Assembly: GCA_028534125.1 (NCBI GenBank)
Contig: CM052816.1
Coordinates: 65,474,001-65,538,000 of the forward strand
Direction of reading: 5' to 3'
DNA: 64,000 nucleotides
From: Lama glama
Taxonomy: Eukaryota
The notes under the pieces were generated by a model. The model did no database searches. It saw nothing but the letters and a program-made list of their open reading frames with translations, and was not told the DNA's origin. The position numbers were made by a program, and so were the translations under genes. How positions within the stretch are numbered: position 1 is the first letter of the stretch; each line of letters opens with the position of its first letter. This document shows positions 6,419-64,000 of the stretch, piece by piece.

Positions 6419-6556
6419 GGAGGGAGGATATAGCTTAGTGGTAGAGGGCATGCTTGGCATGCACAAGGTCCTGGGTTCAATCCCCAGTACCTGCATTAGA
6501 AAAATAAATGACAAACAAACCTAATTACCCCACCCCCCAAAAAAAGAATTTTTAAA
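6419..6556 (+). mobile_element. tRNA-Ala-derived camelid SINE (Vic-1 type), full length
   Basis: Head 'ggagggaggatatagcttagtggtagag...ggtcctgggttcaatccccagtacc' with Pol III A and B boxes; tail 'aaacctaattaccccacccccc' plus A-rich end; exact 15-bp TSD AAGATGTATGTTTCA at 6404-6418 and 6557-6571. Confidence 0.93.
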
Positions 6557-34329: not shown

Positions 34330-35492
34330 TTTTAAAAACATTTTTTATTGAGTTATAGTCATTTTACAATGTTGTGTCAAATTCCAGTGTAGAGCACAAT
34401 TTTTCAGTTATACATGAACATACATATATTCATTGTCACATTTTTTTTCACTATGAGCTACCACAAGATCTTGTATATATTTCCCTGTGCTATACAGTAT
34501 AATCTTGTTTATCTATTCTACATTTTGAAATCCCAGTCTGTCCCTTCCCACCACCCGCCCCCTTGGCAACCACAAATTTGTATTCTATGTCTGTGAGTCT
34601 GTTTCTGTTTTGTATTTATGTTCTTCTTTTTTTTTTTTTTAAGATTCCACATATGAGCAATCTCATATGGTATTTTTNNNNNNNNNNNNNNNNNNNNNNN
34701 NNNNNNNNNNNNNNNNNNNNNNNNNNNNNNNNNNNNNNNNNNNNNNNNNNNNNNNNNNNNNNNNNNNNNNNNNNNNNNNNNNNNNNNNNNNNNNNNNNNN
34801 NNNNNNNNNNNNNNNNNNNNNNNNNNNNNNNNNNNNNNNNNNNNNNNNNNNNNNNNNNNNNNNNNNNNNNNNNNNNNNNNNNNNNNNNNNNNNNNNNNNN
34901 NNNNNNNNNNNNNNNNNNNNNNNNNNNNNNNNNNNNNNNNNNNNNNNNNNNNNNNNNNNNNNNNNNNNNNNNNNNNNNNNNNNNNNNNNNNNNNNNNNNN
35001 NNNNNNNNNNNNNNNNNNNNNNNNNNNNNNNNNNNNNNNNNNNNNNNNNNNNNNNNNNNNNNNNNNNNNNNNNNNNNNNNNNNNNNNNNNNNNNNNNNNN
35101 NNNNNNNNNNNNNNNNNNNNNNNNNNNNNNNNNNNNNNNNNNNNNNNNNNNNNNNNNNNNNNNNNNNNNNNNNNNNNCAGCATTTGTCATTTGTGGACTT
35201 TTGAATGATGGCCATTCTGACTGGTTTGAGGTGATAACTCATTGTAGTTTTGATTTGCATTTCTCTGATAATTAGTGATATTGAGCATTTTTTCATGTGT
35301 CTATTGATCATTTGTATTTCTTCTTTGGAGAATTGCTTGTTTAGGTCTTCTGCCCATTTCTTGGATTGGGTTGTTTGTTTTTTTCTTATTAAATCGTATG
35401 AGCTACTTATATATTCTGGAGATCAAGCCTTTGTCGGTTTCATTTGCAAAAATTTTCTCCCATTCCGTAGCTTGTCTTTTTGTTTTACTCAT
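34330..35492 (-). mobile_element. Young 5'-truncated L1 spanning an assembly gap
   Basis: 3' UTR 'ttttttattgagttatagtcattttacaatgttgtg'; ORF2 C-terminus [28 protein letters not shown]. Confidence 0.92.
34678..35177. other. Assembly gap (500 N)
   Basis: Direct reading. Confidence 1.
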
Positions 35493-42657: not shown

Positions 42658-42755
42658 ATCTGTACTCTTTGGTTACAGTTGTTCAACCAGTTACTAATCT
42701 CACTAATTGTAACCTGTTGAACAACTGAACCCAAAGGGTGCAAAGTGGAAACATG
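42658..42755 (+). ncRNA. MIR582: pre-miR-582 hairpin (5p 42673-42695; 3p 42710-42731)
   Basis: 5p TTACAGTTGTTCAACCAGTTACT matches human miR-582-5p as recalled; 3p TAACCTGTTGAACAACTGAACC; the arms form an approximately 27-bp imperfect stem; flanks 'atctgt.ctctttg' and 'ccaaagggtgcaaagt.gaaaca' match the recalled human precursor. Confidence 0.96.
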
Positions 42756-55571: not shown

Positions 55572-58500
55572 TTTTTCATAGAGTTTTTTGTTTGTTTGTT
55601 ATTGAAGTATAGTCAGTTTACAATGTTGTATCAATTTCTGGTGTACCACACATTGCTTCAGTCATACATGAATATACAAATATTCATTTTCATATTCTTC
55701 TTCACCTTAAGCCACTACAAGATATCAAATATAGTTCCCTGTGCTATACAGTATAAACTTGTTTATCTATTTTATATATACCAGTCAGTATCTGCAAATC
55801 TCAAACTCCCAATTTATCTCTTCCCACCCCCTTCCCCTCTGGTAACCATAAGTTTGTTTTCTGTGTCTGTGAGTCTGTTTCTGTTATATATATATAAGTT
55901 CATTTGTCTTTTTTTTTTTAGATTCCATAGATGATTGATATCATATAGTATTTTTCTTTCTCTTTCTGGCTTACTTCCCTTAGAATGACATTTTCCAGGG
56001 ACATCCATATTGGTGCAAAAGGTATTATGTTGTCATTTTTCAAGGCTGAGTAGTATTCCATTGCATAAATATACCACAACTTCTTTATCCAGTCATCTGT
56101 CAATGGACATTGAGGTCGTTTCCATGTCTTGGCTTTTGTAAATAGTGCTGCTATGAACATTGGGGTGCATGTATCTTTTTGAATTAAGGTTCCCTCTAGA
56201 TATATGCCCAGGAGTGGGATTGTTGGATCATATAGTAAGTCTATTTTTCATCTTTTGAGGAATCTCTATACTGTTTTCTATAATGGCTGCACCAAACTAC
56301 ATTCCCACCAACAGTGTGGGAAGGTTCTCCTTTCTCCCCGCCCTCTCCAGCATTTGTTGTTTGTGGACCTTTGAATGATGGCCATTCTGATTGGTGTGAG
56401 GTGATACCTCATTGTCATTTTGATTTGCATTTCTCTGATAATTAGCGATGTTGAGCATTTTTTCATGTGCCTATTGGCCATTTGTATGTCTTCATTGGAG
56501 AATTGCTTGTTTAGGTCTTCTGCCCATTTTTTGATTGGGCTGTTTGTTTTTTTCTATATGAGTTTATGAGCTGTTTATATATTCTGGAAATCAAGCTCTT
56601 GTCAGTCTCATCTTTTGCAAATATTTTCCCCCATTCTGTAGGTTGTCATTTTGTTTTGCTTACGGTTTCCCTTTCTGTGCAAAAGCTCATAAGTTTCATT
56701 AGGTCCCATTTGTTTATTTTTGCTTTTATTTCTATTGGCTGGGTAGACCGCCCTAGGAGAACATTGCTGAGATGTATGTGAGATAATGTTTTGCCTGTTT
56801 TCTTTTAGGAGATTTACTGTGACTTTCCTTATGTTTAAGTCCATAAGCCATTTTGAGTTTATTTTTGTGTATGGTGTGAGGGAGTGTTCTAATTTCATTG
56901 ATTTACATGCTGCTATCTAGTTTTCCCAACACCACTTGCTGAAGAGACTGTCTTTTCTCCACTGTACATCCTTGCTTCCTTTGTCAAAGATTAACTGACC
57001 ACAGGTCTGTGGGTTTATTTCTGGGCTCTATTCTGTTCCATTGACCCTGATGTCTGTTTTTGTACCAATATCATGCTGTTATGATTGCTGTAGCTCTGTA
57101 GTGTTGTCTGAAGTCTGGGAGTGTTATTCCTCCAGCTGCATTCTTTTTCTTCAGTAATGCTTTGGCAATTCTGGGTCTTTTGGGCAATTCCATGTAAACT
57201 TTAATATGATTTGTTCTATTTCTGTGAAAAATGTCCTGGGTAATTTAATAGGGATTACATTAAACCTGTATATTGCCTTGGGCAGGATGGCCACTTTAAC
57301 AATATTGATGCTTCCAGTCCAAGAGCATGGGATATCTTTCCATTTCTTTAAGTCTTTAATTTCCTTAATTGATGTTTTGTAGTTCTCCGTGTATAAATCT
57401 TTCACCTCCTTGGTTAGATTTATTCCTAGGTATTTTATTACTTTAAGTGCAATTTTAGAAAGGATTGTTTCTTTACTTTATTTTTCTTTTGTTAGTATAA
57501 AGAAATGCAACTGATTGTTTTTACATTAATCTTGTATCCTGCTACCTTGCCGAATTCTTTTATTTGCTCTAGTAGTTTTTGTGTGGAGATTGTAGGGTTT
57601 TCTATATGTAGTATCATGTCTTGGTGTGGGGCTATTTGGGTTCTTCTTGTTTGGAATCCTCTGTGCTTCCTGTACTTGTATATCTGGTTCCTTCTTTAGG
57701 TTTGGGAACTTTTCAGTCATGATTTCTTCAAATACCTTTTCAATTCTCTTTGCTCTTTCTTCTCCTTCTGGGACCCCTATTATGCATAGGTTGGCACACT
57801 TTATGGTCTCCCATAGGTCCCTTATATTGTTTTCATTGGTTTTTATTTGTTTTTCTTTAAGCTGTTCTGATTGGGTGTCTTCTGTTATCCTGCTTCTAAG
57901 TCACTTATTCGTTCCTCTGCATTATATAGCCTGCTTTTTTTATAGCCTTTAGTTCAGCTTGTATCTCAACAAGTGAGTTTTCCATTTTTAATTGGCTCCT
58001 CTTTATAGTTTCAGTTTCCTTTTTGATATATTCTTTGTCTCTATTCACTATCTCTTTAAGTTCCTTCAGTACTTTGATCACTCCTTTTTTGAAATCATGA
58101 TCTAGTAGACTATCAAGGTCTATTTCATTGAGCATTCTTTCAGGGGATTTCTCTTGTTCTTTGAATTGGGAGAGATTCCTCGGCTTCTTCATTTTACTTA
58201 TATCTCTTTGCCTCTATGGATTATGGAGTATAAGTTATCTACTGTGGTCCTGAACAGGTTTATTTATTTATTTATTTAACACAGGTGCAGAAATAAAAGT
58301 TGAAAAAAAATTAAAAGAAGAAAAAAAGCTTTGAAAACAGTATAATCAATAACAGAAGAACAAAATAGAGAAATATAGATCAAATTAAGACAAAAAGTTA
58401 ATAGAAATTTTTTAAAAGAAAAAATGTTTAAAAGGATTAAAAAATAAGAATAAAAAATTTAAGAAAATAAAAATTAAAAAAAAAGGAACAAAACAAAACA

Positions 58501-59696
58501 AAAAAAGGAGCATGTGTTCCTGTGTAGACTGCACTCCTAATAATTTTGTCAAGAAGTCCTTTTTAAGTATGCCTGGTTGCCATGTCTTCCTTCCATGCCT
58601 TTTGTCTGTTATCCCTTTGGTTGGGGGTTTGGCTGGTGTTGTGGCCAGAGCCTGTTCTGTGGTTGTTGCTGCTCCTGCCATCGCCCTGCTTCGTCAACTG
58701 CTCGCTGCTTCCAGAGGCCTGCGGGTCGGTCCGCTGGTCTGTGCTGCTCCCAGCGCCGGTAGGCAGGAGGTTCGCGCCCCCTCCCCACGCTGCGTCTGGT
58801 AGGTGGGCGGGTCGCTCCCCTCTTCAGCGCCCCTCCCCACGCCACGTCGGGTCCACGCTAGGTAGGCGGGCTGGCAGAAAACGGCCTCACCGGCCCTCGC
58901 CGCCACTGTGCGCGACTGTCCTCCTTGTTCACTTGTTTTGGAGGCAGGAGTTCACAGAGGCACCACAGAGCAGAACGGTCCCCTCTGCCTGGGGCTGTAA
59001 ACAAACCGCAGTCCCGCCTAAGAGGTTGTGGCGCCCCTAGGTACGTATTCAGGTTTCGACCCCACCTCCGCCTGGTGCTGCGTGTCTGAGGAGACAAAGG
59101 CTACGGCGCCCCTCCCCCCAGGGCACACCAGCAGTGGTGCTTTGGTTCTTTTTTGTTTTTTCCTTTTCGTATTTTCTGGGAAACCCAGGCTGTCCTGCTC
59201 TGTATACCCTCCCAGCCACGGCGCACGGCACCCTGCAGTCCCCCAAGGTTTGCCTCTGTACAGCGGCCCCTGTCCTCCACCCGCCTTGGCCCTGGCAGCC
59301 TGTCCCGCCCCCCAGCTGCCGGTTTGCGTCTAGGGCTGGGGCTCCCGGGGACCCTTTGTGCCTGCTTCACTTAGTTCTGTCAGTCAAGGGCTGTTCCATG
59401 CAGATCCGAGCCTCAGAGGTTCCCCCTCAGCCTCTGACCACTCCGTTGGAGCGCTGTTCCTCCTTTGCACTCCCTCCCCACAGGACCGGTTTCGCACTAA
59501 TTTCCTTTTGCTTTTCTTTTTCCCTTTTCTTCTACCAGATTTGTGGTGTATTTTGTGTTTTGAAGAAGGTAATGTTCTGTCAAAGTTCAGCGGGTGTTCT
59601 GAGTGGATGGGTGGGTCCGTGGATGTCAGTCTTGGTGTATTTGTGTGAGAGGGTGAGCTACGTGGCCTTCCACTCCGCCATCTTGGCCGCCTTCCC
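55572..59696 (-). mobile_element. Young L1 with both ends intact but an internal ORF1-to-RT deletion, nested in the older L1
   Basis: 5' end 'gggaaggcggccaagatggcggag'; CpG-rich 5' UTR; ORF1 start at 58192 (MKKPRNLSQFKEQEKSPE); ORF2 C-terminus; T-rich tail; TSD CTTCTGGG(A/G)TTTT at 55559-55571 and 59697-59709. Confidence 0.93.
58680..59696 (-). promoter_or_regulatory. CpG-rich L1 5' UTR internal promoter with YY1 motif
   Basis: The only CpG-dense stretch in the window; CCGCCATCTTGG at 59675-59686 is the YY1 core at the L1 5' end. Confidence 0.75.
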
Positions 59697-60850
59697 CTTC
59701 TGGGGTTTTATCTTGTTCCTTCATCTGGAACATATTCCTTTGTCACCTCATTATGTCTAAATTGCTGCTTGTATTTATATATGTGGTAGATAAACTATGT
59801 TTCTCGACCTTGGAAAAGTGGCCTTTGTACGAGAAGCTTTGTGCATCTCAGCAGTGCACTCCCCACTTGTCACCCAAGGACAGGGGCTAGCTGGTCACAG
59901 GGTAGCACCTGCCCTGTTTGCGGACTCATTCAGCAGGCTGTGAGACCAGTTTTCTTGCTTTTGGTGCCTCCTGGTGGGTGAACCTGGTGTAGAACTTACG
60001 CAGGCTTCCTGGTCGGAGGGCCTGGTGACTGACTACTGGTGGATAGACCTGGGTCTTGGTCCTTTGGTGGGCAGTGCCATGTCTAAGGGTGTATCTAGAG
60101 GCAGCTGTGGTCTCAGGAAGTCTTTAGACTGCCTGTCTGGTGATGAATTGGGCTCTGTCCCCACCCAGATAGATGTTTGGCCTGGAGCCTCCCAGCACTG
60201 GAGTGTACAGGCTGTTGGGTGGGGCCAGGTCTTAGTGCTAATGACCCAAGATGTTAGCCTCCAGGTAAGTTTACACAGATGAATACTCCCTGATGTGTCT
60301 GCCAGCAATGTCTGTGTCCCAAGGGTGAGCCACAACCGCCCCCACCTTCCCAGGAGACCCTCCCAGACCAGCAAGTAGGTCTGGCCCAGACTCCTGTGAA
60401 ATTACTGCTTTTGCCCTTGGTCCTGGTGCATGAGATTTTGTGTGTATCCTGTGAGAGTGAAGTCTTTATTTCCCTGAGTCCTGTAGCGCTTCTCCAGTTA
60501 AGCCCTGCTGACCCTAAGAGTCAAATGCTCTGAGGTTTCCTCGTCTCAGTGTTCGACCCCAACCTGGGGAGCCTGACATGGGGTTCACCCCTGTGAGGGA
60601 ATCTCTGCCATATAAATATTCTCCAGTTTAGGGGTCACACACCCTGGACTTAATGAGATTTGATTGTATCACAAGTCTGCCCCTCCCACCCATTTCGTTG
60701 TGGTTCTTTATGTGTTTAGTTGTAGAAGATCTTTTCTGGTAGGTTCCAGTCTCTTTCACTGACGATTATTCTGCAGTTAGTCGTGATTTTGGTATGCTCA
60801 TGAGAGAAGGTGAGCTCAAGGTCGTTCTACTCCATCATTTTGGCTGTGCT
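59697..60850 (-). mobile_element. Older L1 host, part 2: ORF1 N-terminus and 5' UTR
   Basis: Sequence continues from 55571 ('ttctgggg ttttatcttgttccttcatctggaacatattcc'); 5' end 'ggtgagctcaaggtcgttctactccatcattttggc' is homologous to the young element's 5' end but CpG-depleted. Confidence 0.85.
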
Positions 60851-61979: not shown

Positions 61980-62091
61980 AATTTGTTTTTCACTATATGT
62001 TTAAACTGTGATGAATGTCATTAATGTCGTCTCTCCTTTTATTTTAGGTAAGTACATCACCATTTTTGAAGCTTTATGCAGATGGGTAAGT
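61980..62091 (+). other. Recursive splice site with RS-exon (3'ss AG 62046-62047 abutting GTAAGT; RS-exon 62048-62085; downstream 5'ss GTAAGT 62086-62091)
   Basis: cattAat branch-like motif (A at 62024), tract 'tcgtctctccttttatttt', TAG|GTAAGT, TGG|GTAAGT 38 nt later, no AG between 61980 and 62045; PDE4D is a known recursively spliced gene in human. Confidence 0.75.
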
Positions 62092-62964
62092 CTTGCTGTT
62101 GAAGTGTTTCATGTTGATTTGCATACTTGGAGAATCTCGACCAGACAATGTGCTTATCATGGTCAGACAAATGCTTTTATTTTATTCAAGCAGAGATTTA
62201 GAAAGATAACAGCATTTCCCACACATATTCCATCTCTGTTTCAAATTTTTGGCAGAAAAAAATACATTCATTATTTTAAATTGGATGACATGTTATGTTT
62301 AATCTAAGTAATTGAAGATTGAGTTTTTTTACTCTGTCAGTAGAAGGCAGAGTATTTGAAAGGTTTTAGAATAGAAAAAAAAAGGTTTTCCTTCTATGAG
62401 AAATTGTGAAAATTTCTGAGGTAAAACATACAAACCTTTGTTTTTTTCCTTGCAAATGATGAATCTTTTTAAAATCACATAAAAAGCAGGTATCCCATGA
62501 TTATATTAATAAGATACAATTTTGTAGCAAATAGAAAATGTGGCTAATGTTCCTATAAGATCATTTGTACAGAACATTATACAAATTGTACATTGTACAA
62601 ATGAGGGAATTCTTGCTATGAGTGAGAGTTCATGTAGTTAATTTAGTGTTTATCGTTGTCTGTGATCCACTCCCATAGAAACTGAAGTAGGAGAAAAAGA
62701 CCTTGAAACAGGGGATTTAGTATAGATGTAAGTTGGATGTGAAAGGTAATTAAGCTATGAAACAACTTGCAAAAGGAAGTTACAAAATTTCTGCAATGGC
62801 GAACTTTAAAAACTATGTAAACAGTTTTATTTGCATTAGGAAAGTAAGATTTATCCTGTTTTGAGGCGAAGTATTGAGTTGACTAGTTGTCCTTGGTGAT
62901 AAAGTCCCAATTTGCTCCTCCAAGCTTTAATTTCTACTACTTACTCCATCTAAACCCTATTCTC

Positions 62965-63411: not shown

Positions 63412-63639
63412 CTTAGGCTCTTAGGTCTTGGTTCTTTCATTTCTTGTTCTGCATTAAAATCCCTCTCTCACCATTGCCTTTGACTCACATTCTACTCGTT
63501 CTTCACGCCCAGATCAGTTACCATTTCCTTCATGATCTGAGCAAGCAATGGCTGGTGATTACCACTCTTTTTTTGGAATTTTATAATTCTATGTATTTTC
63601 CTATGATATTTGTTGCCTTTTGTTATACACTTGTTCAAA

Positions 63640-63919: not shown

Positions 63920-64000
63920 GGGGGAGGGTATAGCTCAGTGGTAGAGCATGTGCTTAGCATGCATGAGGTCCTAGGTTCGATCCCCAGTACCTCCATTTAA
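63920..64000 (+). mobile_element. tRNA-Ala(AGC)-derived camelid SINE (Vic-1 type), cut off by window end
   Basis: 'ggggagggtatagctcagtggtagagcatgtgcttagcatgcatgaggtcctaggttcgatccccagtacctcca' with intact A and B boxes; same family as 6419-6556. Confidence 0.9.

Follow-up and report, generated by a model that had tools for sequence, protein, structure and literature searches.

Is the stretch at 61980-62091 on the + strand of this DNA, deep in a long PDE4D intron, a recursive splice site, and, if it is, does it correspond to a site already described in human and mouse or to an additional one? The question came from a tool-free reading of the raw sequence, which proposed a recursive splicing layout here and named the host gene and its strand. 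We analysed the whole 64-kb stretch (64,000 nucleotides, C1:65474001-65538000 of its genome), hereafter the window; positions are those of the window unless a C1 coordinate is given, and a slash marks a splice border. Gene, strand and layout were all upheld. We conclude that 61980-62091 is very probably a PDE4D recursive splice site of the vertebrate type, orthologous to human RS1 and to the mouse site at chr13:109333510.

Gene and strand were assigned from landmarks inside and outside the window. A mir-582 precursor hairpin lies at 42662-42744 (+); it matches Rfam model RF00927 in full length, scoring 110.6 bits (gathering score 84; E 1.5e-23). In the literature (for example, PMC3384304), mir-582 sits in a Pde4d intron. 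Exons of the PDEase_I catalytic domain were located at C1:66118312-66124587, on the same contig and strand, about 582-588 kb downstream of the site. Because mir-582 and the phosphodiesterase exons share one strand, the window lies in PDE4D, and the host strand is +, as had been claimed.

Upstream of the site, we found a PDE4D5-type first exon with an 88-codon frame at C1:65452391-65452656 (+), 83.4 kb away and ending ..ACA TG/GTAAGA. Its 88-residue translation aligns from end to end with the N-terminus of an annotated PDE4D isoform of 746 residues at 95% identity, and its identity to several further annotated PDE4D isoforms is 98%. We take this N-terminal region to be the one unique to PDE4D5. 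A 16-residue piece of it gave no match in a literature search. A PDE4D7-type exon lies 287.6 kb upstream of the site at C1:65248229-65248458 (+), bounded by ..cag/GCC...AGTAG/GTGAGT; in another frame it reads ..ASEETLHSSNEEEDPFRGMEPYLVRR.., presumably the PDE4D7-specific region. The site is thus 83.4 kb and 287.6 kb past two upstream exons and about 582 kb before the nearest catalytic exons, deep in a very long intron. For both upstream exons, the hairpin falls within the intron segment that would be removed first, so the geometry proposed for mir-582 holds; its release through the removal of that segment is a proposal. Cropping of a miRNA hairpin does not require prior splicing.

A further upstream PDE4D exon, about 622 kb from the site, was located at C1:64914263-64914398 (matched by P0127 over C1:64914238-64914398) and looks untranslated. 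This exon and the one at C1:65248229-65248458, which encodes the PDE4D7-like N-terminal region, were revealed only through the mapping of the spliced transcript contig P0127 described below; residues 2-55 of P0127 match the more distant of the two. Pfam returned no family for the 88-residue N-terminus, for P0127 or for the open reading frame (ORF) at 62005-62307. Downstream, exactly 100,000 nt past the recursive site, an ACG/GTAAGA motif occurs at C1:65636045-65636053, near the position of a further PDE4D first exon of human (+99.6 kb) and mouse (+108.8 kb, ending ACG). We saw no reading frame or promoter-like sequence at this motif.

The remainder of the window held several other features. 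A CpG-island-like stretch at 58501-59250 (C1:65532501-65533250), 3.3-3.5 kb upstream of the site, has a GC content of 0.60-0.63 and a CpG observed/expected ratio of 0.60-0.69; the highest GC content in the window, 0.486, is that of 58001-60000. An intronic promoter or enhancer could account for the stretch at 58501-59250, as could a GC-rich repeat. Two tRNA-model matches scored above the gathering threshold, at 6424-6495 (+) and 63924-63995 (+), with 38.8 and 52 bits, respectively; given their place in a PDE4D intron, tRNA-derived repeats or pseudogenes are likelier here than functional genes. A repeat family flanks an assembly gap of 500 N (34678-35177) and occurs three times in the window (approximately 34.3-35.4, 48.1-49.1 and 55.6-57.2 kb), and the + strand is T-rich at 52-58 kb. 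The three-copy repeats look like antisense LINE fragments.

Direct reading found each part of the module where the original prediction had put it. An AG-free zone of 66 nt (61980-62045; a script also gave 66) precedes the acceptor. Within this zone lies the candidate branch point CATTAAT (62019-62025), whose branch A at 62024 precedes the G of the AG, where the intron would end, by 23 nt; the TTAAT at 62021-62025 is compatible with the branch consensus yUnAy. The polypyrimidine tract follows at 62026-62045, with pyrimidines at 17 of 20 positions, and leads into the recursive 3' splice site AG at 62046-62047. This AG is immediately followed by GTAAGT (62048-62053), the 5' splice site that would be regenerated after the first splicing step. 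A second donor, TGG/GTAAGT, has its GT at 62086 (62086-62091), and the interval between the two splice motifs delimits a putative 38-nt RS-exon at 62048-62085. This exon has a frame-shifting length and begins G-TAA; both that length and the TAA (62049-62051) had been predicted.

The 62086 donor is the sole site with at least 7 of 9 consensus matches in the 400 nt past the recursive site. The GC content of the RS-exon is 0.37, against 0.33 in the following 200 nt, and is thus intron-like; an intron-like GC content was described as typical of RS-exons by Zhang et al. 2018 (PMC6110456). Searching the 2.35-Gb genome with a 401-nt query around the site returned one match, so the DNA of the site is unique, in agreement with the prediction.

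The same layout of pyrimidine tract, AG/GTAAGT, short exon and second donor is shared by vertebrate recursive sites with short RS-exons in Cadm2, Lsamp, Ank3 and Ntm, which follow the exon-definition model of Sibley et al. 2015. Drosophila ratchet points, which have zero-nucleotide exons (for example, in Ubx and kuz), resemble the site in that an acceptor abuts a donor in a very long intron that is removed stepwise; unlike them, the vertebrate model, in the accounts we drew on, requires a downstream donor for exon definition. Mouse RS-exons with downstream reads measure 42-202 nt (PMC8797253), and the putative 38-nt exon here would be shorter than any tabulated there.

We then compared the site with chance expectation. 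The octamer AGGTAAGT occurs twice in the window (at 60263 and 62046) against 2.61 occurrences expected, and at least two occurrences were seen in 71 of 100 shuffles. Alone, it is near the chance rate and uninformative; the composite is unusual. Among 445 AGGT sites on both strands of the 64-kb window, only one combined at least 80% upstream pyrimidine with at least 5 of 6 matches to GTAAGT. When 100 kb of the same contig on either side was added to the window (264 kb, both strands), the full AGGTAAGT with at least 80% upstream pyrimidine was found at 1 of 1,930 AGGT sites, namely this one. On the + strand of the 264 kb, GTAAGT occurs 65 times and GGTAAGT 10 times; from this local rate, another GGTAAGT would be met within 100 nt with a probability of approximately 0.004, and another GTAAGT with one of approximately 0.024. 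The other copy of AGGTAAGT, at 60263-60270 (+), has pyrimidines at 11 of 20 upstream positions and an AG-free zone of 5 nt, and is probably a chance match.

Evidence on splicing came from P0127, which comprises 261 residues from a single 1,796-nt Logan contig from a public run of a relative. Its match to the window starts only at G-K-Y, with 87% identity over 75 residues: residues 177-250 align to the window from 62047, and the match goes on to about 62299 after a change of frame. The PDE4D7-type exon, 287.6 kb upstream on the same strand, is matched instead by residues 101-176 (C1:65248230-65248458). The homology changes from exon to window exactly at the AG at 62046-62047, and the end of the exon joined to the window from 62048 reproduces, when translated, the P0127 junction exactly (..LLQTPV then GKYITIFEALCRWVSL). 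Stretches of DNA that are 288 kb apart can have come together in one 1.8-kb contig only by splicing. This one contig shows what appears to be use of the AG at 62046-62047 as an acceptor in a relative. The match extends about 250 nt into the intron, and the 62086 donor is read through unspliced. P0127 is thus the expected intermediate, consisting of an upstream exon, the recursive acceptor and the following intron; taken alone, it also fits an alternative terminal exon.

Logan ORFs ending in ...AHTW (for example, P0002) were considered as further evidence of the junction and were set aside. The intron of the PDE4D5-type exon itself starts with GTAAGA, so that unspliced DNA also reads TGG TAA, and these ORFs cannot tell the junction from genomic DNA.

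Conservation was assessed through a stop-free stretch of 100 codons that spans the site (62005-62307, +). We regard this frame as non-coding; it served as a handle for orthologous sequence in protein collections, in which the same frame had been called as 'proteins' on short contigs from other organisms. Used as a query, the frame found four relatives (88, 69, 64 and 54% identity) and then two more, and their clusters added 19 members. In total, we recovered 25 related ORFs in six clusters at 90% identity, the representatives of which are 54-88% identical to the window ORF; the phylogenetic breadth of the set is a guess from these identities. The splice block is covered by 24 of the 25 ORFs, as P0133 begins past it. 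One further candidate, P0128, is a repetitive protein of 687 residues that matched in seven stretches, and it was treated as spurious. A metagenome contig scan for TTTTAGGTAAGT, a gap of 28-32 and GGGTAAGT gave six loci, all of them unrelated chance matches.

The original prediction had named a lack of conservation of AGGTAAGT and the downstream donor as an observation that would count against it; at the translated level, both are kept in 24 out of 24 covering relatives. The region of AGGTAAGT reads L-G-K-Y in 23 of the 24, the 24th being the spliced contig P0127, and G-K-Y, which corresponds to the GTAAGT at 62048-62053, is present in all of them. The second donor reads W-V-S-L in 24 out of 24, at the same offset and ungapped, so the 38-nt spacing is kept. 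This conservation is read from amino acids and gives no direct view of third-codon bases, the T of the first GT among them. In a five-sequence alignment (the window and four relatives), 14 of 18 positions were invariant in the block 62041-62094 compared with 13 of 70 after it (Fisher p 4.6e-6, with block borders taken from those of the finding itself). The codon equivalent to the branch A (AAT, 62023-62025) is invariant in all four aligned relatives. The residue beside it changes from I to T in two of the four; a single base change of ATT to ACT could explain this and would give CTAAT, which would still be compatible with a branch point. Elsewhere, the ends of the relatives' ORFs vary, and P0135, P0139 and P0141 change frame near the C-terminus.

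Both upstream exons end two bases into a codon, the PDE4D5-type exon in ..ACA TG/ and the PDE4D7-type exon in ..AGT AG/. Joined to 62048, the frame reads TGG TAA or AGG TAA, respectively, with the TG prefix giving W and then a stop. The TAA at 62049 is therefore in frame for two out of two upstream exons examined. The predicted stop thus stands for these exons, in the narrower form that it arises only if the upstream exon ends with two codon bases. All long isoforms enter the common exon 2 in one phase, so the TAA should be in frame for every long-isoform upstream exon. The annotated 746-residue protein reads AHT-C-FDVDNG across the junction, which indicates that the mature mRNA is without the 38 nt.

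After the first step, the regenerated donor is ATG/GTAAGT with the PDE4D5-type exon, corresponding to ATGGTAAGT, and TAG/GTAAGT with the PDE4D7-type exon; the RS-exon's own donor, with which it would compete, corresponds to TGGGTAAGT. MaxEnt scores are 11.01 for ATGGTAAGT and 10.24 for TGGGTAAGT (PMC8797253 S4 Fig), giving a small advantage for recursion. In Cadm2, Lsamp, Ank3 and Ntm, as here, the regenerated donor at least equals the exon's own donor in strength.

Several recursive sites in PDE4D have been published. Zhang et al. 2018 (PLoS Genet, PMC6110456) reported three in human, of which RS1 is the promoter-proximal one, the others being RS2 (+217.5 kb) and RS3 (+303.5 kb). It is placed at hg19 chr5:58981769 on the minus strand, within the intron 58511794-59064072, and in S2 Table it is 82,303 nt from the upstream donor with a phastCons value of 1. 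Junction reads at human RS1 numbered 34, 123, 158 and 32 at 60 min, 120 min, 4 h and 16 h, respectively, and coverage there followed a saw-tooth pattern (PMC6110456). According to the same paper, RS1 had been reported earlier by Sibley et al. 2015; according to a review (PMC8758631), PDE4D is also among the genes of Duff et al. 2015. We found no PDE4D rows in the lariat table of Zhang et al. or in the supplements of PMC10156609, and no mir-582 in the supplements of PMC3675212.

Distances from two landmarks place the site at the position of human RS1. Counted to the G of its AG, the site lies 83,391 nt past the last base of the PDE4D5-type exon, compared with the 82,303 nt of human RS1, an agreement within 1.3%. 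Human mir-582 is tabulated at chr5:58999432-58999529 on the minus strand (PMC3384304); with these coordinates assumed to be hg19, the distance from mir-582 to the site is 17,663 nt in human and 19,303 nt here, which agree within 9%. Human RS1 thus lies in the same gene and in the same mir-582-bearing intron, at a matching distance from the upstream donor and at a similar distance from mir-582 (17.7 versus 19.3 kb), and it too has a strong acceptor and high conservation. The likeness is between different species and is one of position.

In mouse, the site at mm10 chr13:109333510, one of three Pde4d recursive sites, has the identical AGGTAAGT and 128 upstream junction reads (PMC8797253 S3/S4 Figs). 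By hand count, its printed pyrimidine tract is identical to that of the window at 14 of 20 bases, and eight of the other 19 mouse recursive sites, compared in the same way, reached 7-11 of 20. The original prediction had allowed for either an ortholog of a known PDE4D site or an additional site. The two independent landmark distances that agree with human RS1, together with the 14 of 20 tract bases, favour the site being the ortholog of human RS1 and mouse chr13:109333510 over its being an additional one. Since its human and mouse counterparts have been published, the site confirms what was known and is not a discovery.

The mouse site differs from that of the window in its follower exon. The mouse table gives a 208-nt RS-exon (chr13:109333512-109333719) whose donor is weak (score -3.21), and it records 0 downstream junction reads (PMC8797253 S4 Fig), whereas in the window the donor 38 nt downstream is strong and is kept in all 24 covering relatives. 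The upstream exon ends also differ: the regenerated donor is tabulated as ACG/GTAAGT in mouse (PMC8797253), with ACG as the end of the upstream exon, compared with ATG and TAG for the two exons here. A rule drawn by the mouse study is that sites without downstream intermediates have weak downstream donors (PMC8797253). If mouse also keeps a strong donor 38 nt downstream, this site would be an exception to the link made there between weak donors and missing intermediates.

Taken as a recursive splice site, the element would work in two steps. Long PDE4D isoform transcripts begin at alternative upstream exons, such as the PDE4D7-type and PDE4D5-type exons found here. In step 1, the acceptor would be made up of the AG at 62046-62047, the tract before it and the branch point near 62024, and would probably be recognized by exon definition together with the 62086 donor. 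The upstream exon would be joined to 62048, and the first intron segment, carrying mir-582, would leave as a lariat. In step 2, the junction would recreate a strong donor (ATG/GTAAGT or TAG/GTAAGT) that would normally beat the TGG/GTAAGT at 62086. The 38 nt would then be removed with the next intron segment and would leave no trace in the mature mRNA. If the 62086 donor were used instead, the 38-nt exon would be retained with its immediate TAA, and nonsense-mediated decay would be expected. We infer the use of the 38-nt exon, its role in exon definition, the competition between the donors and the decay upon inclusion from the arrangement of these motifs.

Another reading is that the 38 nt form an ordinary cryptic or 'poison' cassette exon, occasionally included and then degraded, with no recursive second step. 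Both splice sites of the 38-nt exon are indeed present and conserved, and inclusion would yield an immediate in-frame stop. However, such an exon would carry the hallmark of a regenerated donor, a perfect GTAAGT, as its first bases, and the P0127 contig is unspliced across the 62086 donor. At the orthologous human position, a saw-tooth pattern has been reported together with junction reads of the intermediate that accumulate over time (PMC6110456), and the mouse site has 128 upstream versus 0 downstream junction reads (PMC8797253). We therefore consider an ordinary cassette exon quite improbable.

Less probable again is a reading in which the AG serves an alternative terminal exon, with intronic polyadenylation downstream of 62048. 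Such an exon would give the structure of P0127, where intron sequence runs on without interruption for at least 250 nt past the junction of an upstream exon with the AG. Against this reading, AATAAA is found 0 times in the 1,953 nt past the site, compared with a window mean of 1.16 per kb, and the nearest ATTAAA is at 63453. Two U1-type donors also stand directly past the acceptor. Donors of this type would be expected to suppress polyadenylation close by. The saw-tooth pattern published for the human ortholog (PMC6110456) likewise speaks against a terminal exon.

The idea that splice-like motifs lie side by side here by chance and without function, or that 62005-62307 is a small conserved protein-coding ORF, can appeal to the chance rate of the octamer alone and to a stop-free frame of 100 codons that has relatives in protein collections, but it is extremely improbable given a composite unique among 1,930 AGGT sites, a conservation peak on the splice block (14/18 versus 13/70 positions), relatives' ORF ends that differ and in some cases shift frame near the C-terminus, the lack of a Pfam family for the ORF and the apparent use of the AG in the spliced contig. 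The recursive splice site of PDE4D remains the reading that we prefer.

Thus, a reading of raw sequence without tools picked out a true recursive splice site. At the translated level, the recovered relatives preserve the site along with its branch region, its second donor and the 38-nt follower exon. The known picture of recursive splicing is unchanged. For PDE4D, the analysis makes small additions: the stop embedded in GTAAGT is in frame for both upstream exons examined, and the strong, conserved donor 38 nt downstream differs from the one tabulated for mouse. Tentatively, the 38 nt may form a conserved 'poison RS-exon', with the 62086 donor acting as a regulated switch that would set the dosage of long PDE4D isoforms by diverting transcripts to decay; we regard this as unlikely. 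If it were true, the weak-donor rule of the mouse study would fail here, and PDE4D would have one control point downstream of its upstream promoters.
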